Shown: in pieces, positions 11,399-25,830 of the stretch
Layout of the letters: the number at the start of each line of letters is the position of its first letter
Position numbering within the stretch: the first letter of the stretch is position 1
Source of the DNA: Chloroflexota bacterium
GTDB taxonomy: Bacteria > Chloroflexota > Limnocylindria > Limnocylindrales > CSP1-4
Length of the DNA stretch: 64,000 nucleotides
Direction: 5' to 3'
NCBI GenBank assembly: GCA_015478725.1
Contig: JADMIG010000002.1
Location: 57,254 to 121,253 of the forward strand
Notes under the pieces: model-generated
Database searches by the model: none
What the model saw: the letters and a program-made list of their open reading frames with translations, nothing else
Told to the model about the DNA's origin: nothing
Program-made: the position numbers and the translations under genes

Positions 11399-11474
11399 GC
11401 GCCCGTAGCTCAGCGGATAGAGCGTCGGCCTCCGGAGCCGAAGGTCGCAGGTTCGAATCCTGTCGGGCGCGCCA
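11399..11474 (+). tRNA. tRNA-Arg (anticodon CCG)
   Basis: GCGCCCGTAGCTCAGCGGATAGAGCGTCGGCCTCCGGAGCCGAAGGTCGCAGGTTCGAATCCTGTCGGGCGCGCCA. Clean cloverleaf, anticodon loop CTCCGGA, encoded CCA. Confidence 0.9.
11458..11474 (+). repeat. 17-bp sequence at the tRNA-Arg 3' end (tcctgtcgggcgcgcca); left copy of a direct repeat
   Basis: Exact 17-bp copy at 12843..12859. Confidence 0.7.
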
Positions 11475-12289: not shown

Positions 12290-12714
12290 TTACCCAATCC
12301 CTGTGAATATCAACTGGTCGTCGCGACAGTTCGTTCGAGTGTAGCGGCCGGCGTCGCGAAACCGAGTGCCTTGCGGGCGTCGATCGCTGCCCCCGACAGG
12401 TTGACGATTGCGCCGCACACCATGGTCCTCCATCGCATTGATCACGGGGTATTTGCCATGACGCAGCATCACAACCTCGTCAACGGAATCCCCATCGGGT
12501 CCGGGCGCACTGATGACCGCATTTGCTCCCTCGATCGCCTGGGCGACGGCGGTGGCGTCGGCGACCTGCCCAGCTGCGACCCGCACGCGCTCGCCGATCC
12601 GACCGACCTCCGTGGGTCGCGGACCAGCAGAGTCACGTCGTGACCCTTCGCGAGCGCCTGCTCGACGACGAGCTCACCGATACTGCCTGTGACTCCGAGC
12701 ACCGTGAGCTGCAT
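12290..12714 (-). pseudogene. Frameshifted NmrA-like / NAD(P)-binding oxidoreductase gene
   Basis: N-terminal MQLTVLGVTGSIGELVVEQALAKGHDVTLLVRDP (Rossmann GxxGxxG) in one frame (start 12714). The continuation ...GQVADATAVAQAIEGANAVISAPGPDGDSVDEVVMLRHGKYPVINAMEDHGV is in another frame (12586..12290). Break near 12600–12620. Confidence 0.55.
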
Positions 12715-12842
12715 CAGCCGATTCTGGCGAACGACAGCTCGGTAGGCGGAGCAACCGTAGCCCTGACTGGCAGAGAGGGTCGTGACATTCATCCCGTTCG
12801 AGCTCGTATCGCTCACTTGGCTGCATGCCGCCCACGTCCGAC

Positions 12843-12859
12843 TCCTGTCGGGCGCGCCA
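12843..12859 (+). repeat. Exact 17-bp direct repeat of the tRNA-Arg 3' end (attR-like)
   Basis: tcctgtcgggcgcgcca is identical to 11458..11474. Chance expectation for a 17-mer in 64 kb is ~1e-5. Confidence 0.7.
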
Positions 12860-12913
12860 CGAACACGCGTTCTATGTTGCTCAGGTTGCATGCGCCGGTC
12901 GGGCGCTCCGCCC

Positions 12914-13807
12914 CTACGTTCGACTCGGACTCCCGAGGCTGTCCACGAGTTGAACAAGCCATCGGTCGAATGCGTCTGCGAAGTCGTCGCCGAGGACGTC
13001 GAGATTCGGCTGGGGGAGCCCCTCGCTCGTGATCCGGTCCCGCAGAGACTCGACGACCCGCCGTGCCTCGATCGCGCGCACGGACGGAGACATCCCATCC
13101 TGCTTATGGAAACGAAGCACTTCGAGCGCCACACCGAACCGGGTCACCCAGTCGGGCTGGGCGATGGGCGGTCGGAGTCCCGGGAGGATCTCGCCTGGCT
13201 TGGTCGGGACGAGACGCCGCTCATTGCCCACGGTCCGTGCCTCGAGCAAGCCCGCCAGCATGAGCGCGTCCACGGCGAAGGCGACATTGGGCTTTGTGAA
13301 GCGCGTCTTGCGGGCAAGGTCGGCGACACTCAGACCGATCTGCGGAGCGGCCAACAGAGCCGCGAGCACGTCGGCCCGGGCATTCACCCCGAACGCGGCG
13401 CGCAGGCGGATGCGCAGTCGCGACTGTGACCGGGCCGATTCGAGTCGAGCCTTTCCTCGTGACGAGTACCCGGGGCGCGGCTGAGTCGCCATCGGCCAGG
13501 CCGGACCCCCGGCGGCGGCGACCGTGGCCACGTACTCGCCGATCGCTTCGGGTGGGGTCTTGAGCTCGCGCGCCACCTGCTTGAGACGCGATCCGTTGAC
13601 GTACCGGCCGTAGGCGACGCACCAGTCGGTGCTGACATCGCGCAGGCGCGCATCGGCATCGCCCAGCTCTGCCGTGAGCGCGATGAGCGCTTCGGGATCG
13701 ACCACGGCGTCGTCGGACTCGCCGACCGCGTCGACCCCGAGCGCGATCCATTGGATCCACGCCCGGTTGAGCAGGGCACTCTGGAGCGTGCTAGTCGAGC
13801 CAGCCAT
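12914..13807 (-). CDS. Hypothetical winged-helix/HTH protein, partner of the upstream nucleotidyltransferase
   Basis: 297 aa from MAGSTSTLQSALL (ATG at 13807, overlapping the upstream gene end by 17 nt). Central HTH-like LSVADLARKTRFTKPNVAFAVDALMLAGLLE. The longer track ORF (to 14302) is an antisense-overlap artefact. Confidence 0.5.
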   Translation of the reverse strand: MAGSTSTLQSALLNRAWIQWIALGVDAVGESDDAVVDPEALIALTAELGDADARLRDVSTDWCVAYGRYVNGSRLKQVARELKTPPEAIGEYVATVAAAGGPAWPMATQPRPGYSSRGKARLESARSQSRLRIRLRAAFGVNARADVLAALLAAPQIGLSVADLARKTRFTKPNVAFAVDALMLAGLLEARTVGNERRLVPTKPGEILPGLRPPIAQPDWVTRFGVALEVLRFHKQDGMSPSVRAIEARRVVESLRDRITSEGLPQPNLDVLGDDFADAFDRWLVQLVDSLGSPSRT

Positions 13808-14405
13808 CGGCGTCGTCCACCCCGAGTCGGCGGAGCGTTTCGATGAGCAGTGATCGGTAACCGGGCGATGGATCGTGCGTGACGGTCCAGCGAGCAGCGG
13901 CGAGGAGTTCGTCGCGGCCCGGACCGAGTTCGCGCAGGTCCTGTATGTGCCGGCTCCGAGGTCCCTGGTCGACGGCCGCGTAGAACTTGAAACAGACCAT
14001 GTCGAATCGACCCGCGAGCCAGGCGACGAGACCGCGGTAGTCGTGTCGTTCGAGGCGCCCTGAGAAGCCGTCAGGAAGGCCCAGATCGAGCAGCGACTCG
14101 GGACCGAGGTTGACCCAGTCGCTGGCGAGTCCGTAGGTGCGCGCGACGTCAACGACTGCGATGCGGAGCGGTTCGGGCATGGGCCGCATGGGCTTGATTC
14201 CGTCGCTCGTCCACTCGCCGAGAAGGTCGAGATCCTTCGTGGCGGGTCGCGTGACGAGCCCGCGCAGGATGAGGTTGCCGCCCCCGATGAGGACGACCTC
14301 ATAGTGGAGCCAGCGGGCCTCGAGGAGTTCTCCGAGTGCCCGGAGCGCTGTCTCGAGCTGGGTTCGTCCGATCGATGTCATTCCTCGACTGTAGACGGGC
14401 GCCAT
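13791..14405 (-). CDS. Minimal nucleotidyltransferase-fold protein (AbiEii/MenT-like)
   Basis: 204 aa. VVLIGGGNLILRGLVTRPATKDLDLL resembles the polymerase-beta-type GG...DxD nucleotidyltransferase motif of AbiEii/DUF1814 toxins. Confidence 0.5.
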   Translation of the reverse strand: MAPVYSRGMTSIGRTQLETALRALGELLEARWLHYEVVLIGGGNLILRGLVTRPATKDLDLLGEWTSDGIKPMRPMPEPLRIAVVDVARTYGLASDWVNLGPESLLDLGLPDGFSGRLERHDYRGLVAWLAGRFDMVCFKFYAAVDQGPRSRHIQDLRELGPGRDELLAAARWTVTHDPSPGYRSLLIETLRRLGVDDADGWLD

Positions 14406-14627
14406 GAAAGAGTCAATCTATCGAATCGATGCAATGAGTCTTCTTAATAGAGCACATGACCGAGCTTTTCTCGGTTCTCGCCGGTGGGTGGGCAGGCATC
14501 GGCCATGCACTGACATACCAGACGCGGCGATCATTTAGCCGACAACAGGCTGTCCGGGATCCGGATATCTGAGCCCTGTCCCGCCAAGTAGTCACACAAC
14601 GGGCCCGGCGGCTGCTATGATGACCAC

Positions 14628-14894
14628 ATGGACGTGGGCATTCGCGACCTCAAGGCACGCCTTTCAGAGCACCTCGACCGGGTGGCCCATGGTGAGGTGA
14701 TCACGGTCACCAGCCGTGGCCGACGCGTGGCGCAGATCGTGCCCATCCTGGGACGGGACAGCCTGGATCGCGGCCTCGCGGAGGGCTGGGTCACGCGTCA
14801 GGTGGAGCGCCCCCCTGAGCCGGTCCTCCGTCAGCGGCCACTTCCCGGAACACTGACGACGACCCAGCTGATCTCTCGGGACCGGGGGGCATGA
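14628..14894 (+). CDS. vapB: Type II antitoxin, Phd/YefM (VapB-type)
   Basis: MDVGIRDLKARLSEHLDRVAHGEVITVTSRGRRVAQIVP is the canonical Phd/YefM N-terminus. Overlaps the downstream PIN gene by 4 nt. TATGAT -10 element 9–10 nt upstream, so the mRNA is leaderless. Confidence 0.8.
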   Translation: MDVGIRDLKARLSEHLDRVAHGEVITVTSRGRRVAQIVPILGRDSLDRGLAEGWVTRQVERPPEPVLRQRPLPGTLTTTQLISRDRGA

Positions 14895-15295
14895 CGCTCT
14901 ATGTCGACAGCAGCGTGCTGATCAAGCGGTACGTCGCGGAGGACGACAGCGAGGATGCCGATGCGATCCTGCTCGGCGACACCGAATGGGTCACCGGTCG
15001 CCACTCGTTCGTCGAGGTTCTTCTGGCGATCCACCGCCGACTCGGGGATACGGAGCGTCACGTGGCGACGACGGCGTTCGAGCGTGACTGGCAACGCACG
15101 TTCGTTGTGGCTCTCGACGACGTGGTGTGCCGTCGCGCCGCGGAGCTCGGCATCGTCACCGGAGCTCGCTCCCTCGATGCCCTGCACCTGGCGGCGGCCG
15201 AGCGAGCTGGGGGCCGATCGGTGCCGATCGTCACGTTCGATGTGCGGCTCGCGCAAGCTGGCCGGTCCCTGGGGTTCGCGGTGATCGGGTCGTAG
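14891..15295 (+). CDS. vapC: PIN-domain ribonuclease toxin VapC
   Basis: 134 aa. The N-terminal LYVDSSVLI acidic pocket and later conserved Asp residues are typical of PIN domains. Confidence 0.85.
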   Translation: MTLYVDSSVLIKRYVAEDDSEDADAILLGDTEWVTGRHSFVEVLLAIHRRLGDTERHVATTAFERDWQRTFVVALDDVVCRRAAELGIVTGARSLDALHLAAAERAGGRSVPIVTFDVRLAQAGRSLGFAVIGS

Positions 15296-15315: not shown

Positions 15316-15831
15316 TCACGCCAGGAGCGCACCGACACGCTCGAGGGGTCGCTGCGACGGATGGGCGGTCACGCCATCGTTCAAGAAGGCCCGAGCGCAA
15401 CCACCCGCCAAGGCAGCATCGGCACCCGCACGCGCGACGACCAACGGCGAGGTCGGCACCCTCGTGGAGCTGGTCCAGATGATCCGGCGACGGGAGCCGC
15501 CGCTGAAGCCGGCGCCCGTGATCCTTCGTTTGGGCGGACCGACACCGTGCGCCGATCGTCGGGCCTTGGTGGGGCCTGCTAGCGTGAGCTCGCCGAGGGT
15601 CCCGCAGTCGGTCCATCGCGACGCCGCTTCGGCTACTTCCTCCGGGTCGAACCAGAGTGGAAGCTGCCTGTACCCCACCGAATCAGCTGTCGGGTTGGCG
15701 TGCTCGCGGTCGAGGTAGCTGTTGAACTCGGCAACCAGGGCGGCCATGGCCGCCATGGCCGCCACGAACCCCTGACGGTGCTCTTCCAGCGACAGCATCG
15801 ACAGACGCCGCGGGCGACGATCGAGTGTCAA
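15316..15831 (-). CDS. Hypothetical protein downstream of hipA (weak call)
   Basis: 171-aa ORF 13 nt after the hipA stop. The N-terminal half looks protein-like (EEHRQGFVAAMAAMAALVAEFNSYLDREH...). The C-terminal half is low-complexity and may be frameshifted. Confidence 0.25.
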   Translation of the reverse strand: MTLDRRPRRLSMLSLEEHRQGFVAAMAAMAALVAEFNSYLDREHANPTADSVGYRQLPLWFDPEEVAEAASRWTDCGTLGELTLAGPTKARRSAHGVGPPKRRITGAGFSGGSRRRIIWTSSTRVPTSPLVVARAGADAALAGGCARAFLNDGVTAHPSQRPLERVGALLA

Positions 15832-15843
15832 CGTCCGGGGGCG

Positions 15844-17094
15844 TCAGGCTCGAATCGCGTCATCGAGCACATCGAGCTCGGCACTGCCCAGGTCCAGGGG
15901 CCGGACCGTGTCGCGCCAGGTGGCGAGCGCCGCCCGGACCTCGTCGATGATGACCTCCGACTCCGATCCCGACAACCGGTAGAACGGGGCCGTCTCGCGC
16001 AGGACGTCGAGATCGCCCCGGTGGACCGCGCCATCAAGGGACAGCTCGTGCTCGGGCTTGCGAGGCGTGGGGTTCAGGTCGAAGGCCGGGGCCAGCCGCC
16101 AGCCCTCGGGCGTCCGCAGGTAGCCGTGGTTGCGCAGGTGGTCGTCACGGTGTGACGCCACGACGTTGAAGGCGGCACGCCGGAACAGCTGGGCCAGGTC
16201 CTCGCGGATCCAGCCGGGCGCCCCGTGGTCGGCGATGGCGAGGGCGATGTCGAGATAGCTCGCGTCGTCACGGTCGCGTCGAGACGTCATCGTCATCGCC
16301 GAGATGTAGAGGCGTCGCGTCCCGGGGGCCCGGTCGAACCGCCTCGCGGCGAAGATGCGGTGCCCATCATCGAGCGTCAGGAGCCGGTGCTCGGGCACCG
16401 CGATCCCGGCGCGGACCGCGAGGTCATTGAGCACGTACTCGCAGGCGCCGACATCATGGCGATCCATCCGCGACGGGAACTTGGCGATCCAGAGCGCGCC
16501 GCTCGCGCCCTCGAAGGTGGCCTTGGGTCGCGCGCCGCCGAGCGAGCTGCCCGGCGCGAGCAGGAGGGCCAACCGCTCCGCCTCGAGCGACCGAGCGCCG
16601 CGCGAGGGATGTTCGAGCTCCCGCGCGGCTGCTTCGAGCTCGCGGAGGCCGGCAATCGGCGGCACGCCCGGAGGCTCGTCGTCGAGGTACCGGCCGTCTC
16701 CGTCGACAAACCGGAGCGCCCCCATGCGCGAGAAGTCGCTGACGCCAAGCAGGAACTCCCACTCCCCGAGGGTCCGCCGGTGACGCCCCTCGGCACGGGC
16801 CAGGACGGCCTCCTGGCGCTCGAGGAGCGTCCGGCCCCAGCGGTCCGGCGCGGCGTCGGTGAAGACTGCGGCGATGCCGTCGCCGGCCCGCGGATACTGG
16901 TCGCCGGCGTACGGACCGTGAGCGGGGTCGATGACGAAGGCGTCGCGTCGGGCGAGCCAGGCCTCGTCATACCCGAACGCCACGACCGCGCCGGACGGCG
17001 ATGGGACCCGACGCAGCGTGCCCACACGGACCGGGCCGCCGAGCTCCGCGGCATCGAGCTCGACGATCACCTCGTGGGGCAGCTCGCGACTCAT
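15844..17094 (-). CDS. hipA: HipA-family Ser/Thr kinase toxin
   Basis: 416 aa. The GGARPKAT and DDHLRNHGY motifs are HipA hallmarks. Confidence 0.85.
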   Translation of the reverse strand: MSRELPHEVIVELDAAELGGPVRVGTLRRVPSPSGAVVAFGYDEAWLARRDAFVIDPAHGPYAGDQYPRAGDGIAAVFTDAAPDRWGRTLLERQEAVLARAEGRHRRTLGEWEFLLGVSDFSRMGALRFVDGDGRYLDDEPPGVPPIAGLRELEAAARELEHPSRGARSLEAERLALLLAPGSSLGGARPKATFEGASGALWIAKFPSRMDRHDVGACEYVLNDLAVRAGIAVPEHRLLTLDDGHRIFAARRFDRAPGTRRLYISAMTMTSRRDRDDASYLDIALAIADHGAPGWIREDLAQLFRRAAFNVVASHRDDHLRNHGYLRTPEGWRLAPAFDLNPTPRKPEHELSLDGAVHRGDLDVLRETAPFYRLSGSESEVIIDEVRAALATWRDTVRPLDLGSAELDVLDDAIRA

Positions 17095-17411
17095 CGGTCC
17101 GTGGTCCGCTTCATGCGCCGCGTGGGCCGGACGACGGCGTCGGCGAGCCGGCGGCCGAGCTCATCGTCCGCGGCGACGCGGGCGATGTCCTCGTCAAGCC
17201 CCAGGACGCCGAGCGCCCGGACGAGGACACCGAGCCCGACCGAGAGGTCCCCGTGCTCGAGGCTGTAGAGGGTCATGCGGGAGACGTCCATTCGCTCGGC
17301 CATCTCGGTCGCGGACATGCGCCGGCGTAGGCGGGCAAGGCGCACGCGGTCTCCCAGCGACTCCGCGAGCCGCTGGTAGCGCGGGAACGATGGCAGCGTC
17401 TGCTTGCTCAT
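17091..17411 (-). CDS. hipB: XRE-family HTH antitoxin HipB
   Basis: 106 aa from MSKQTL. The XRE-type HTH MSATEMAERMDVSRMTLYSLEHG is present. Overlaps the hipA start by 4 nt (ATGA). The track ORF extends upstream. Confidence 0.75.
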   Translation of the reverse strand: MSKQTLPSFPRYQRLAESLGDRVRLARLRRRMSATEMAERMDVSRMTLYSLEHGDLSVGLGVLVRALGVLGLDEDIARVAADDELGRRLADAVVRPTRRMKRTTDR

Positions 17412-22941: not shown

Positions 22942-25830
22942 ATGCACGCCGCCCTGAGGGCCGTTCGGTGCCCGCTCCTGATCGGTCGTGACGACTTGCT
23001 CGTCCTCGCGGATCGGCGTCTCGACGACGTCACCGCCGGGCGGGGCCAGTTTCTTCTGCTCGCCGGCGAGGCAGGGATCGGCAAGACCCGGCTGCTTGCG
23101 GCCATCCGACGCAGGGCGGAAGCCCGCGGATTCGTCGCTGTCGCGGGGTCGGTCGCCCCGCAGGACCGCGACGTGCCGGCATCGTCGATCCTGGACCTCG
23201 CTCGCAGCATGACCCGGCTCGCGCCGTTCGCCGAACTCGGTCGGCGGCTGCTCGATCTGCGCGACACAACCATGACGGCGGAGCACGTGCAGCGTCGACG
23301 GCTGGTGATGGACATCGTCGAACGGATCCTCGACACATTGCCGGGCCCGACGATGCTCTCGTTCGAGGATCTGCAATGGGCGGACGATGTCAGCCTCGAG
23401 ATCATCGCGGAGCTGGCGCGACGGTCACGTGACCGCACGCTCCTCCTGACCGGCGACTACCGGACAGAGGATGTGGCGTCCGGCGCGGGCCTTCGGGACT
23501 GGCGAGCACGGCTCATCACCCAGCGGATTGCGGAAGAGGTCCGGCTCGTCCCGCTGACCGAGGCGGAGACCGCCCTGGCCACGACCCTGATCCTCGACAC
23601 CGGACTCCCCGCGCCACGAGAGGTGTCGGCCGCCGTGTTCGAGCGGACGGATGGCATCCCGCTCCATATCGAGGAACTCCTCGGCGCGTTGAGCGCCGAG
23701 GACCGAGCGGATGGGACCGCGATCAGGGAGGCCACGGTCCCCGACACGATCGAGGACGCCGTGATCGCCCGGATCGCCCACCGCTCGCCCGAGGCGCGGG
23801 CGGCCGCCCGCGCGGGGGCCGTCATCGGTCGCTGTTTCGTCCCGGAGGTCCTGGCTGGAATCATGGACTTGCCGCCGGACGCCCTCGAAACGCCGCTCCA
23901 GGAGCTTGTCGACCATTTCATCCTCGATCCTCCCGGGCCGCGCGGTTTGTACGACTTTCGGCACCAGCTGCTGCGCGATGCGCTCTACCGCACGATCCCG
24001 GCCTCGGAGCGGCGCCGGTTCCACGCTCGCGCCGGGGAGTTCGGGGCTCACCTGGAGGGAGCATCGGAGATCCACGCATCTGTCCACTACGAGCGCGCCG
24101 GGCTCCGCCGCCAGGCATTCGAGGCCGCGCTGGCGGGTGCCCACGAGGCGACGCGGCTGTCGGCACACCGAGAGGCATTCGGGCTCTATCGACGCGCCGT
24201 CGACAACATGCCGGACGACCTCGACCACTCGGATCGCGGCGCGCTGCTCGAGGCATATTCGCGCGAAGCGGCGACGATCGAGCAGAACGGGATAGCCGAA
24301 CAGGCGAGCCGGCACGCGCGAGCCGCCTACCTCGCGGCCGATCGGCCGGCGAAGGCCGCCGAGATGCTCATCGGGGTGCTCGGCATCTGGCGCCGCGAGG
24401 CCCGATCGATCGCCGAGCGGTCCCGCCTTGCCGCCACGTCGTTCGACGAACTCGAGGTCCTGCCTGACAGCAGCGAGCGGGAGGTCGCCCGCGGTGCGCT
24501 GTTCGACGAATGGACGCGGATCCACCTGGACACGATCTCGGTCGACGCGGCCCGCTCGACGATCGCGAGGATGCGCGGGACCGCGACGTCTCTTGGGGAC
24601 GCGGTCGCCGCGATCCAGGCGGATGCCTTCGCGGCGACCGTCGACGTGCTCGAGGGCCGGGTGGCGATGGGTCTCGACGGGATCGCGTCCGCCGCCCACG
24701 AGGCACAGCGCGCTGGCTTCGAGGAGTCCGGTGTGACCGCCTTCCGCGACGCCGCCACGATGGCCGTCCGGACGATGGACTACGCGCGGGCGGACCGCTT
24801 CCTCAGCGAGGGGTTGCGCTACGCGGACGCGATCGAGCAGTCGCACTGTCGTCACGTGATGGGCGCGACGTCCGCGCTCGTCGCGTGGGCCGGGGCGGAC
24901 TGGGACGATGCGGCCGCGACGGGCCGCCAGACGATGGCGGACCACGGCTGCCGGCGCGCGGTGTCGATGGCTCGCTGGGCGGTCGGATACGTGGCCCTTG
25001 GTCGAGGGGATCTCCGAACTGCGGACGCGGAGTTGGCGTCTGCACTGTCGGTCGGGGAGGAGAGTGGCGCGATCGACCTCATCCTCCCGCCGCTCTGGGG
25101 GCTGGCCGAGGCCGCGCTCCTCGCCGACCGTCCCGACGGGGCGGCCGAGCGGTGCCACGACGCCCTCGAGCGGGCACGTGCGGTCGGCGAGCGGGCCCTG
25201 CTGACCCCATTCGTCGTCACCGGCGTCCGCGCCGAGCAGGCGGCCGGGCGACCCGAGGGGGCGCAGGCTTGGCTTGCGGCCTGTGCCGAGCACGTCTCGG
25301 CGCTGCCGGCCATCGCCCGGCCGGCGCTCGATCACGGCCACGGCCTGGTCGCCCTCGCCGCGGGTGCGACCGGCGTGGCGCGCCAGGCGTTGGAGGCTGC
25401 GCTCGCTGGATGGGACGAGCGGGGACGGATCTGGGAGGCCACCTGGGCGCGCCTCGACCTCGCGAACTGCCTCACCCGCTCAAACCGGTTCGCCGAAGCG
25501 GTCGTGCTGGCCGCCGAAGCTCGCGCGGTCGCCTCCAGACTGGACAGTCGGCCGCTCGCGGATCGGGCGGATGCCCTGCAGCGGATGGCCCGCGGTCATG
25601 TGGCGACGGACGAGCCGTGGCGCCCTTTGACGACCCGCGAGTTCGCGGTGGCGAGGCTGATCAGGGAGGGAATGACGAACGCCGAGATCGCCACGGAACT
25701 GGCGATCGCTTCGAAGACGGCGAGCAGTCATGTGGAACACATCCTCGCCAAGCTCGGCGCGTCACGCCGGACCGAGATTGCCGCCTGGGCGAGTGCCGTG
25801 GAGCGCGCGCCGGATCGCCGCTCGCCGTGA
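22942..25830 (+). CDS. Large ATP-binding LuxR-family regulator (LAL/MalT-like: AAA+ NTPase + TPR-like + LuxR HTH)
   Basis: 962 aa. N-terminal Walker A LLLAGEAGIGKTRLL. C-terminal LuxR HTH LTTREFAVARLIREGMTNAEIATELAIASKTASSHVEHILAKLG. Confidence 0.85.
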   Translation: MHAALRAVRCPLLIGRDDLLVLADRRLDDVTAGRGQFLLLAGEAGIGKTRLLAAIRRRAEARGFVAVAGSVAPQDRDVPASSILDLARSMTRLAPFAELGRRLLDLRDTTMTAEHVQRRRLVMDIVERILDTLPGPTMLSFEDLQWADDVSLEIIAELARRSRDRTLLLTGDYRTEDVASGAGLRDWRARLITQRIAEEVRLVPLTEAETALATTLILDTGLPAPREVSAAVFERTDGIPLHIEELLGALSAEDRADGTAIREATVPDTIEDAVIARIAHRSPEARAAARAGAVIGRCFVPEVLAGIMDLPPDALETPLQELVDHFILDPPGPRGLYDFRHQLLRDALYRTIPASERRRFHARAGEFGAHLEGASEIHASVHYERAGLRRQAFEAALAGAHEATRLSAHREAFGLYRRAVDNMPDDLDHSDRGALLEAYSREAATIEQNGIAEQASRHARAAYLAADRPAKAAEMLIGVLGIWRREARSIAERSRLAATSFDELEVLPDSSEREVARGALFDEWTRIHLDTISVDAARSTIARMRGTATSLGDAVAAIQADAFAATVDVLEGRVAMGLDGIASAAHEAQRAGFEESGVTAFRDAATMAVRTMDYARADRFLSEGLRYADAIEQSHCRHVMGATSALVAWAGADWDDAAATGRQTMADHGCRRAVSMARWAVGYVALGRGDLRTADAELASALSVGEESGAIDLILPPLWGLAEAALLADRPDGAAERCHDALERARAVGERALLTPFVVTGVRAEQAAGRPEGAQAWLAACAEHVSALPAIARPALDHGHGLVALAAGATGVARQALEAALAGWDERGRIWEATWARLDLANCLTRSNRFAEAVVLAAEARAVASRLDSRPLADRADALQRMARGHVATDEPWRPLTTREFAVARLIREGMTNAEIATELAIASKTASSHVEHILAKLGASRRTEIAAWASAVERAPDRRSP

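Follow-up and report, generated by a model that had tools for sequence, protein, structure and literature searches.

Gene pair and promoter

The window, i.e. the whole stretch of 64,000 nt analysed, contains a cassette of two overlapping genes for a predicted nucleotidyltransferase (NTase) and a partner protein, preceded by a promoter and a predicted operator:

13791–14381, minus strand: NTase gene, predicted toxin; 196 aa plus stop, based on homologue length, promoter position and DUF6036/AbiEii profile matches in the family
12914–13807, minus strand: partner gene, predicted antitoxin and autorepressor; 297 aa plus stop, based on the translation and on homologues of 297 aa
13791–13807, minus strand: overlap of 17 nt, from the partner start to the NTase stop
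14388–14416, minus strand: sigma-70-type promoter, TTGACT (14416–14411), 17-nt spacer, TACAGT (14393–14388), then 6 nt to the ATG at 14381; based on conservation of the upstream region
14418–14432: 15-bp palindrome GCATCGA-T-TCGATAG, predicted operator, abutting the −35 box
14405–14445: longer, imperfect inverted repeat (~41 bp) that has the palindrome at its centre and the −35 box in its right arm

A preliminary description of this DNA had reported two genes overlapping by 17 nt; the ORF list and the translation bear out both the coordinates and the overlap and place both ORFs on the minus strand. The partner reading frame of 297 aa is counted from an ATG internal to a longer ORF. Both genes are real because each has more than 500 homologues, many of them 81–100% identical and of the same length, and the differences from homologues fall mainly at third codon positions. 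For codon positions 1, 2 and 3 we counted 394, 302 and 1085 differences in the NTase gene and 4370, 3118 and 11260 in the partner gene. The 204 aa initially given for the NTase is the length of its longest ORF (13791–14405, minus strand), and only the start needs revision. The true start is almost certainly the ATG at 14381, eight codons downstream of the ATG at 14405, because the homologues are annotated with a length of 196 aa and the upstream ATG falls within the spacer of the conserved promoter (−35 box, 14411–14416; −10 box, 14388–14393).

This promoter was the only promoter-like site found between positions 12700 and 14700. Its conservation extends over 81 unique upstream regions, 76 of them with a 17-nt spacer and 75 with a 6-nt leader, and the family consensus reads TTGACT-N17-TAnnnT-N6-ATG. 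Since the −10 box lies only 6 nt from the ATG, the operon mRNA is predicted to be leaderless. At least five of the seven palindrome pairs are complementary in 60 of the 81 promoters, compared with ~2% of control registers. Pair 4/12 alternates between T-A and G-C, a symmetric co-variation, and divergent clades carry other palindromes at the same position. On average, the outer arms of the inverted repeat agree at 7.1 of 13 positions, compared with 2.0–3.2 in shifted registers; in the related loci L036 and L041 the arms are 17–20 nt long.

The nucleotidyltransferase and its partner

Profile matches and motifs place the NTase in the AbiEii/MenT (DUF1814-like) superfamily, on its DUF6036 branch, in agreement with its initial likening to AbiEii and MenT toxins. 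DUF6036 (PF19502) was matched by all 13 diverse family members tested (best match 4.6e-11, 43.2 bits; threshold 23.6). The window NTase itself scored 20.7–20.9 bits, just under the Pfam gathering threshold of 23.6, and relatives with the same partner scored 32–43 bits. Many homologues at 81–89% identity carry a precomputed PF19502 match, and one that is 86% identical is named 'DUF6036 family nucleotidyltransferase' by NCBI; an exact look-up of the window NTase protein returned no record. AbiEii (PF08843) was matched by four of the 13 members, one of them above threshold: the motif III–IV region of this 50%-identical relative scored 29.9 bits against the Pfam AbiEii model (threshold 22.5). The window NTase itself gave no Pfam AbiEii match in the profile search, and DUF6036 outscored AbiEii in every family member tested. 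A PADLOC search with the NTase yielded weak AbiEii matches only (best 1.3e-4). The profile check on housekeeping and resistance NTases proposed in the preliminary description was negative: Pfam aminoglycoside, lincosamide and GlnE-type families were not matched by the window NTase even at E≤1. PDB sequence searches with the single sequence and with a profile returned nothing for the NTase, solved MenT chains included. Its AF2 model was poor (pLDDT 57), the input alignment consisting of 81–93% identical sequences only.

Two regions of the NTase gene carry the catalytic motifs (196-aa numbering):

14226–14285, minus strand: catalytic core G33–D52, hGG-x15-DxD with R45 and T48 (T-x-D); based on invariance in homologues
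13938–13988, minus strand: motif III/IV region, K132-LYA ... R144-H145-xx-D148; based on conservation and the AbiEii match in a relative

The motifs first quoted as GGGNLILRG...KDLDLL are present. G33-G34 is followed after 15 residues by D50-L-D52, with R45 in between; K132-(F/L)-Y-A135 and R144-H145-x-x-D148, a variant of the motif IV pattern +DxxD, lie further downstream. G33, R45, T48, D50, D52 and D148 are conserved in 112 of 112 distinct homologues and K132 in 111, and the NTase is predicted to be catalytically competent. Both the Arg and the spacing of x15 are characteristic of AbiEii/DUF1814 (PMC3985639). Known phospho-acceptors are T65 of AbiEii, T39 of MenT1 (T39-x-D41) and S78 of MenT3 (PMC11375011, bioRxiv 2026.01.19.700257). 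Relative to the first catalytic Asp, T48-K49-D50 of the NTase takes the MenT/AbiEii phospho-acceptor position.

The AF2 model of the partner (pLDDT 90.7, pTM 0.91) confidently predicts a helical N-terminal domain, a MarR/ArsR-type winged helix and a C-terminal helical bundle:

13514–13807, minus strand: N-terminal helical domain, residues 1–98; W20, G24, D37, E39, T45, R54, W62 and R74 invariant; no known family
13205–13426, minus strand: winged helix-turn-helix (wHTH) of MarR/ArsR type, residues 128–201
12932–13150, minus strand: C-terminal three-helix region, residues 220–292; no known family

In the N-terminal domain D61 is, like D37 and E39, an invariant acidic residue. Pfam MarR_2 matched residues 144–198. 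Outside the winged helix, no Pfam family was found in 62 diverse partner members and no solved structure resembled the partner in a fold search with the AF2 model; the TM-score normalised to the partner was ≤0.24 for every PDB structural match. AbiEi and HEPN models matched none of the 62 members, HEPN structures were absent among the top structural matches, and His was absent from the columns listed as fully or nearly invariant in three partner alignments. The members and the structure search thus agree with the original view of a partner with a central wHTH and no HEPN, AbiEi or COG5340 signature. PDB sequence searches with the partner, by single sequence and by profile, gave ArsR/MarR matches only, and searches of PHROGs and NCBIfam gave generic HTH matches only. 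The partner family comprises 589 clusters at 50% identity (E≤1e-10) and has no Pfam model beyond the wHTH; public records name the homologues only HTH, MarR or ArsR regulator. In our reading it is probably a new antitoxin/repressor family. A PADLOC match of the partner to PDC-M05A was rejected; it covers the wHTH only (residues 138–203), and the NTase did not match that candidate system. Antitoxins are usually smaller than the partner, whose main role could be a different one.

Linkage, genomic context and decay

The neighbourhood comparison suggested in the preliminary description revealed that co-conservation of the two genes is essentially obligate. The partner gene lay immediately downstream in all 77 NTase-anchored metagenome loci with room for it. 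In the partner-anchored genome loci, the NTase gene was directly upstream in nearly all cases, down to ~35% partner identity. Among three loci at 34–39% partner identity, two had a full NTase gene and the third a C-terminal NTase remnant. NTase and partner identities correlated (r=0.92, n=105). The NTase gene came first in every locus examined, as expected from the reported order with the toxin-like gene ahead, the reverse of AbiE and MenAT. Close loci almost all share the 17-nt overlap, which suggests that the two genes are translationally coupled; in divergent loci the overlap measures 4, 14 or 23 nt.

The cassette is common in uncultured soil Chloroflexota and occurs in many surroundings. 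We found 65 distinct contexts upstream among 88 loci and 77 downstream among 98 loci. A genome locus scan with an alignment of 11 closer sequences detected two copies in six of 74 genomes. Neighbours were often PIN/Phd/HipA modules or IS110, and in the window the cassette is flanked by:

14628–15295: Phd/PIN
15844–17372: HipA and an HTH protein
11399–11474: tRNA-Arg

The vapBC and hipBA neighbours named previously are present. The accompanying term 'tRNA-linked island' holds in so far as a cluster of toxin–antitoxin (TA)-like modules lies beside tRNA-Arg, but none of the genes called within 10 kb is an integrase. An Rfam search gave tRNA only. No homologues were found in the viral contigs and plasmids searched, and the cassette is thus unseen on such classic mobile elements.

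Decay of the cassette was asymmetric. The NTase gene was broken or absent with the partner gene intact in 20 loci and the reverse was found in two, in counts that include a partner-anchored locus set biased to intact partners and in which some 'disrupted' NTases may be frameshift errors of long-read assemblies. In the NTase-anchored set alone, broken NTase versus broken partner genes numbered four versus zero.

Interpretation and comparison with known systems

Overlapping bicistron, obligate pairing, variable context, paralogy and promoter palindrome are generic features of TA systems, and the cassette has them all. We consider it probable that the locus is an autoregulated two-gene TA-like cassette composed of an NTase toxin and a new antitoxin/repressor. 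With regard to toxicity, RNA target, neutralisation, phosphorylation and DNA binding by the partner, we infer the following course. By analogy with MenT and AbiEii, the NTase would transfer nucleotides to RNA, most likely to the acceptor ends of tRNA, and in this way block translation and arrest growth. The partner, like MenA1, MenA3 and AbiEi, would bind the NTase and might neutralise it by occluding the active site, by triggering auto-phosphorylation of Thr48, or by both. Its central winged helix would bind the palindrome abutting the −35 box and repress the leaderless operon. The full proposal is more tentative: the cassette could represent a new TA, possibly abortive-infection (Abi), family with a DUF6036 toxin and an antitoxin of a three-domain fold that both represses a leaderless operon and triggers Thr48 auto-phosphorylation. 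The preliminary claim that the system is undescribed has its basis in a literature search of the searchable library for DUF6036 or PF19502, in which no paper mentioning the family was found.

Resistance or detoxification genes are often under the control of MarR-type regulators. This frequent role, the annotation of the partner solely as an HTH, MarR or ArsR regulator, public records without TA annotation for either gene and the absence of cassette copies from phage contigs and plasmids would all suit a MarR/ArsR-like factor that controls a non-toxic NTase acting on a small molecule (e.g. an antibiotic), a protein or RNA. We regard such a regulator–enzyme pair as unlikely. AbiEii was matched, whereas the aminoglycoside, lincosamide and GlnE-type NTases were not; the pair occurs in dozens of unrelated contexts, has paralogues and frequently lies next to TA modules; and its overlap and one-to-one linkage persist to ~35% identity. 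Moreover, the NTase decays and the regulator is kept, the opposite of what is expected for a useful enzyme cargo, which speaks against the enzyme being one. Reversed roles, with the NTase as an antitoxin that inactivates a toxic partner by nucleotidylylation, are known from type VII HEPN-MNT pairs. In these the NTase gene comes first. The same order is found here and the N-terminal domain of the partner is modelled as all-helical, but the partner is not a HEPN protein with an Rx4-6H motif and the decay pattern suggests that the harm comes from the NTase; we hold this exchange of roles to be highly improbable.

That the cassette serves mainly in abortive-infection defence against phages, with infection releasing or activating the NTase, overlaps with the TA reading rather than excluding it. 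AbiE, the closest relative that has been characterised, is an Abi system (PMC3985639), and the pair is located in variable, TA-rich regions. On the other hand, no recognised defence gene was a conserved neighbour of the cassette, no PADLOC system-level match was obtained, and many AbiE and MenAT homologues have no demonstrated antiphage activity. Defence as the main role appears rather doubtful to us.

If the TA reading is true, it gives a first function to the uncharacterised Pfam family DUF6036 and to a partner family without a Pfam model beyond the wHTH, and shows that the uncultured Limnocylindria, an abundant group of soil Chloroflexota, have a major TA family. To the NTase toxins of AbiE and MenAT the cassette would add an antitoxin with an unrelated architecture and the opposite gene order. 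With the cassette it can also be examined whether NTase toxins in general undergo auto-phosphorylation induced by their antitoxins; if our reading of Thr48 is true, this mechanism is not confined to DUF1814 but occurs in a second NTase family as well. Together, the co-varying predicted operator and the conserved leaderless promoter form a regulatory system that is compact and easy to test.

AbiE (AbiEi-AbiEii; Streptococcus agalactiae, Lactococcus) is a TA/Abi system that was assigned to type IV and has recently been moved to type VII. The cassette has in common with it an NTase of the Pol-beta superfamily, here the predicted toxin, with hGG-x15-DxD, the motif II Arg and motif III KLxA, a Thr at the phospho-acceptor position two residues ahead of the first catalytic Asp, a winged helix in the partner, a bicistronic operon and promoter inverted repeats. 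However, the NTase here is ~100 aa shorter, scores best with DUF6036 instead of DUF1814 and has RHxxD as motif IV. Its partner lacks AbiEi/COG5340 similarity and has a central wHTH (N-terminal in AbiEi) and two extra helical domains. The NTase gene comes first, whereas the antitoxin gene does in AbiE, and the mRNA is predicted to be leaderless.

MenT1 of MenAT1 (Rv0078B-Rv0078A, Mycobacterium tuberculosis) is close in its residues T39, D41, K137 and D152, which correspond to T48, D50, K132 and D148 here, although the NTase has no sequence-level match to any solved MenT chain. MenA1 has 68 aa, no DNA-binding domain and an upstream gene; the partner has 297 aa, a wHTH and a downstream gene. The MenT toxins of MenAT1 and MenAT3 are known with unrelated antitoxins that neutralise by inducing auto-phosphorylation. 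As diverse antitoxins of MenT-type toxins have been described before, the cassette does not amount to a new principle.

DUF6036, the best-scoring family for all members tested, is an uncharacterised nucleotidyltransferase family with no described function or partner. With the HEPN-MNT type VII systems the cassette shares a small NTase gene followed by an overlapping second gene; unlike in these, the partner is not HEPN and the NTase has AbiEii-type C-terminal motifs. MarR/ArsR transcription factors are typically compact single-domain proteins of about 100–150 aa. The partner has their type of winged helix-turn-helix but, at 297 aa, carries extra helical domains at both its N- and C-termini.

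Gene pair, linkage and neighbourhood

Two overlapping minus-strand ORFs were found where the preliminary description had placed a nucleotidyltransferase (NTase) gene followed by a winged-helix-turn-helix (wHTH) partner gene, and their coordinates bear out the 17-nt overlap that it reported:

13791..14405, minus strand: NTase ORF as called mechanically (ORF list, 204 aa)
12914..13807, minus strand: partner gene (297 aa, from an internal ATG within a longer ORF)

The source record, a Limnocylindria-type Chloroflexota MAG, annotates them as 'hypothetical protein' and 'helix-turn-helix transcriptional regulator', respectively. Each protein has >500 database homologues, of which the best 120 are 81–100% identical and nearly uniform in length (NTase 196 aa, partner 297 aa). 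Nucleotide differences from the homologues are most frequent at the third codon position (394/302/1085 by position for the NTase; 4370/3118/11260 for the partner). From the uniform lengths and the third-position excess, we conclude that both are genuine genes.

With the partner as anchor and each species represented by a single genome, we collected 80 loci from 74 genomes. Limnocylindria-type Chloroflexota supply nearly all of these genomes, alongside one Zixibacteria and one Actinomycetes bin; this dominance of one phylum arises partly because the locus-scan patterns were derived from close relatives. The NTase gene lay directly upstream in nearly all loci with room for it, down to 39–45% partner identity. 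Most loci have an overlap of 17 nt; in divergent loci it is 4, 14 or 23 nt. Three distant partners (34–39% identity) were preceded by a full NTase in two cases and by a C-terminal NTase remnant only in the third. In the NTase-anchored metagenome set, 77/77 loci whose downstream sequence reaches 150 nt or more have the partner directly after the NTase, and the divergence of the two proteins was correlated (r=0.92, n=105). The possibility that the second gene is not co-conserved with the first, raised in the preliminary description, is clearly contradicted by these counts and this correlation. At the junction (13808–13823, minus strand), the bases for a conserved NTase C-terminal peptide, GV(E/D)DAD, double as a purine-rich Shine–Dalgarno-like stretch and the partner ATG; conservation of the peptide may partly reflect the translation-initiation signals of the partner.

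In the window, tRNA-Arg borders the cassette on one side and a Phd/PIN pair together with a HipA/HTH pair on the other, and the cassette region shows a mild GC dip (62–67% vs 69–75% in the flanks):

12290-12843, minus strand: NAD(P)H-binding gene (NAD_binding_10/NmrA-like), truncated and split in two frames (probably a pseudogene), next to the partner gene on its downstream side
14628-15295, plus strand: Phd/YefM-type antitoxin and PIN toxin pair, divergent from the cassette
15316-15831, minus strand: unannotated ORF (160–171 aa) without Pfam match, between Phd/PIN and HipA
15844-17372, minus strand: HipA kinase and upstream XRE-type HTH gene, beyond the Phd/PIN pair

A 24-nt copy of the tRNA-Arg(CCG) 3′ end (12836–12859, plus strand; original at 11451–11474) occurs about 1.4 kb beyond the tRNA on its downstream side, in the interval that separates the NAD-binding pseudogene from the cassette; it has 2 mismatches, and no such copy is expected by chance. 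It resembles an att-type scar left by integration at the tRNA, and the cassette sits just outside the segment bounded by this repeat. Elsewhere in the window, ARAGORN called a tRNA-Pro(CGG) (23730–23823, minus strand); at 94 nt, this would be an unusually long tRNA for a bacterium.

Promoter, start codon and predicted operator

When the sequences upstream of the cassette were aligned for about 30 homologous loci, the last 60 nt proved strikingly conserved, and similarity was lost beyond about 60 nt. The following elements were recognized:

14416-14411, minus strand: −35 box, TTGACT
14393-14388, minus strand: −10 box, TAnnnT, followed by ATG at 14381
14418-14432: 15-bp palindrome GCATCGA-T-TCGATAG, one base upstream of the −35 box

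Among 81 unique upstream regions, the layout comprised TTGACT (75/81), a 17-nt spacer (76/81), TAnnnT and 6 nt to the start codon (75/81). It was the only promoter-like site in 12700–14700 (0.3 expected by chance). The separation of −10 box and ATG by 6 nt implies a leaderless mRNA. Moreover, the promoter spacer contains ATG 14405; translation of the NTase therefore almost certainly starts at ATG 14381 and gives 196 aa, in agreement with the homologue annotation. The ORF of the preliminary description stands, its 204-aa length almost certainly does not, and residue numbering follows the 196-aa form.

The palindrome has the consensus yTrkCGA-T-TCGmyAG. At least 5/7 complementary pairs were present in 60/81 unique promoters, compared with about 2% in other registers; pair 4/12 alternates between T-A (19) and G-C (19), and in some loci the palindrome takes a perfect form, CTGGCGA-T-TCGCCAG. 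Outer arms lengthen the symmetry to about 41 bp (7.1/13 matching positions vs 2.0–3.2 in shifted registers), which places the −35 box within the right arm. Divergent clades have the same architecture with other palindromes (TTCTCGA-T-TCGAGAA, GCGCG-TAT-CGCGC, CGCGCA-CTTGACT-TGCGCG); several of their loci repeat a half-site just after the −35 box, and most retain the order −10, 6 nt, start codon. This pattern fits a dimeric wHTH repressor co-evolving in specificity with its predicted site. A perfect 6-bp inverted repeat, ACCGAG-N5-CTCGGT (14459–14478), lies in the AT-richer intergenic stretch that separates the divergent phd/PIN pair from the cassette promoter; read by eye, no T-run comes after it, and it could be an operator of that pair.

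Families of the two proteins

The only Pfam match of the window NTase was DUF6036 (PF19502), at 20.7–20.9 bits, just under the threshold of 23.6. Among diverse family members from loci with the same partner, DUF6036 was matched by 13/13 (best 43.2 bits) and AbiEii (PF08843/DUF1814) by 4/13, in one member at 29.9 bits (threshold 22.5) across the motif III/IV region and in another at the N-terminal catalytic region. A PADLOC search of family members gave weak matches, to AbiEii models only. Resistance-type and housekeeping NTase families, the latter named in the preliminary description as evidence against its reading, did not match the window NTase even at E≤1. The motifs agree with the AbiEii/DUF1814 set of Dy et al. 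(PMC3985639): motif I, G33-G34, then exactly 15 residues, then D50-x-D52; motif II, containing Arg45; motif III, K132-L/F-Y-A; and motif IV in the variant form R144-H145-x-x-D148. Profiles and motifs together support the proposed AbiEii/MenT resemblance. In T48-K-D50, a Thr precedes the first catalytic Asp by two residues, the position equivalent to the phospho-acceptors AbiEii T65, MenT1 T39 (with D41) and MenT3 S78 (PMC11375011; bioRxiv 2026.01.19.700257). G33, R45, T48, D50, D52 and D148 never vary across 112 distinct intact homologues, 111 of which also retain K132; the invariance of the catalytic residues indicates that the NTase is under selection to stay active.

The winged helix is the sole recognizable part of the partner. 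Its central position was confirmed by a MarR_2 match (residues 144–198), and the partner profile hit ArsR-family PDB entries at 1.9e-08. A confident AF2 model (pLDDT 90.7, pTM 0.91), built from a 48-sequence alignment at 32–89% identity, consists of a four-helix N-domain (1–98), a linker, the wHTH (128–201) and a three-helix C-terminal region (220–292). In 62 diverse members of the partner family, Pfam families other than wHTH ones had zero matches and neither AbiEi nor HEPN models matched, as the preliminary description had noted for the window protein. The family forms 589 clusters (50% identity, E≤1e-10), mostly full-length at about 300 aa, with invariant residues in the N-domain (W20, G24, D37, E39, T45, R54, W62, R74) and where the wHTH begins (R136, G140, R144). 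Some relatives (P0292, 1591 aa; P0281, 746 aa; P0246, 886 aa; P0298; P0318, 652 aa), about 34–57% identical, carry the whole 300-aa module N-terminally in longer proteins, with extensions lacking a Pfam match. The module may act as a sensor/regulator head in front of other effectors, or the long forms could be read-through artefacts of gene calling.

Gene decay, proposed mechanism and relation to known systems

The cassette shows several features typical of toxin-antitoxin modules. Where 1.5 kb or more of upstream flank was available (88 loci), it occurs in 65 unrelated upstream contexts; for the 98 loci with downstream flank, the downstream contexts number 77. Despite the unrelated flanks, its proteins are 70–90% identical. 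Frequent neighbours are PIN/Phd/MazE modules or IS110, and 6 genomes hold two copies, often divergent paralogues. The NTase was truncated, internally deleted, frameshifted or absent beside an intact partner at 20 loci, and the reverse was seen at 2, although some of the NTase-decay calls are possibly long-read frameshift errors. The NTase-anchored set alone, in which sampling bias is opposite, gave 4 vs 0. On contig CAWGBA010000009.1, two homologous loci about 9 kb apart (L050 and L052) both have disrupted NTases and intact partners. Such asymmetry would be expected of an NTase that is harmful without its partner. Reversed roles of the HEPN-MNT type were also considered, and the asymmetry (20 vs 2) argues against them.

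With the NTase as predicted toxin, the operon would yield a leaderless bicistronic transcript; NTase synthesis would come first, and translation of the partner would be coupled to it. The partner would bind and neutralize the NTase, probably by active-site occlusion and induced T48 auto-phosphorylation, by analogy with AbiEi–AbiEii and MenA–MenT, and would repress the promoter by blocking access to the −35 box. Free NTase would probably block translation by nucleotidylating tRNA 3′ ends.

The pair falls under no PADLOC system, and no mention of DUF6036 or PF19502 was found in the literature searched. Among known systems, the locus would work most like AbiE/MenAT. However, in AbiE the antitoxin is of the AbiEi type, its gene comes first and the toxin is DUF1814, whereas here the partner is not AbiEi-type, the NTase gene comes first and the NTase scores best to DUF6036. 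The superfamily of the predicted toxin is thus already known; the predicted antitoxin/repressor family and the operon layout are new. Pairing of MenT toxins with unrelated antitoxins has precedent, so the cassette leaves current concepts unchanged, yet it merits testing.
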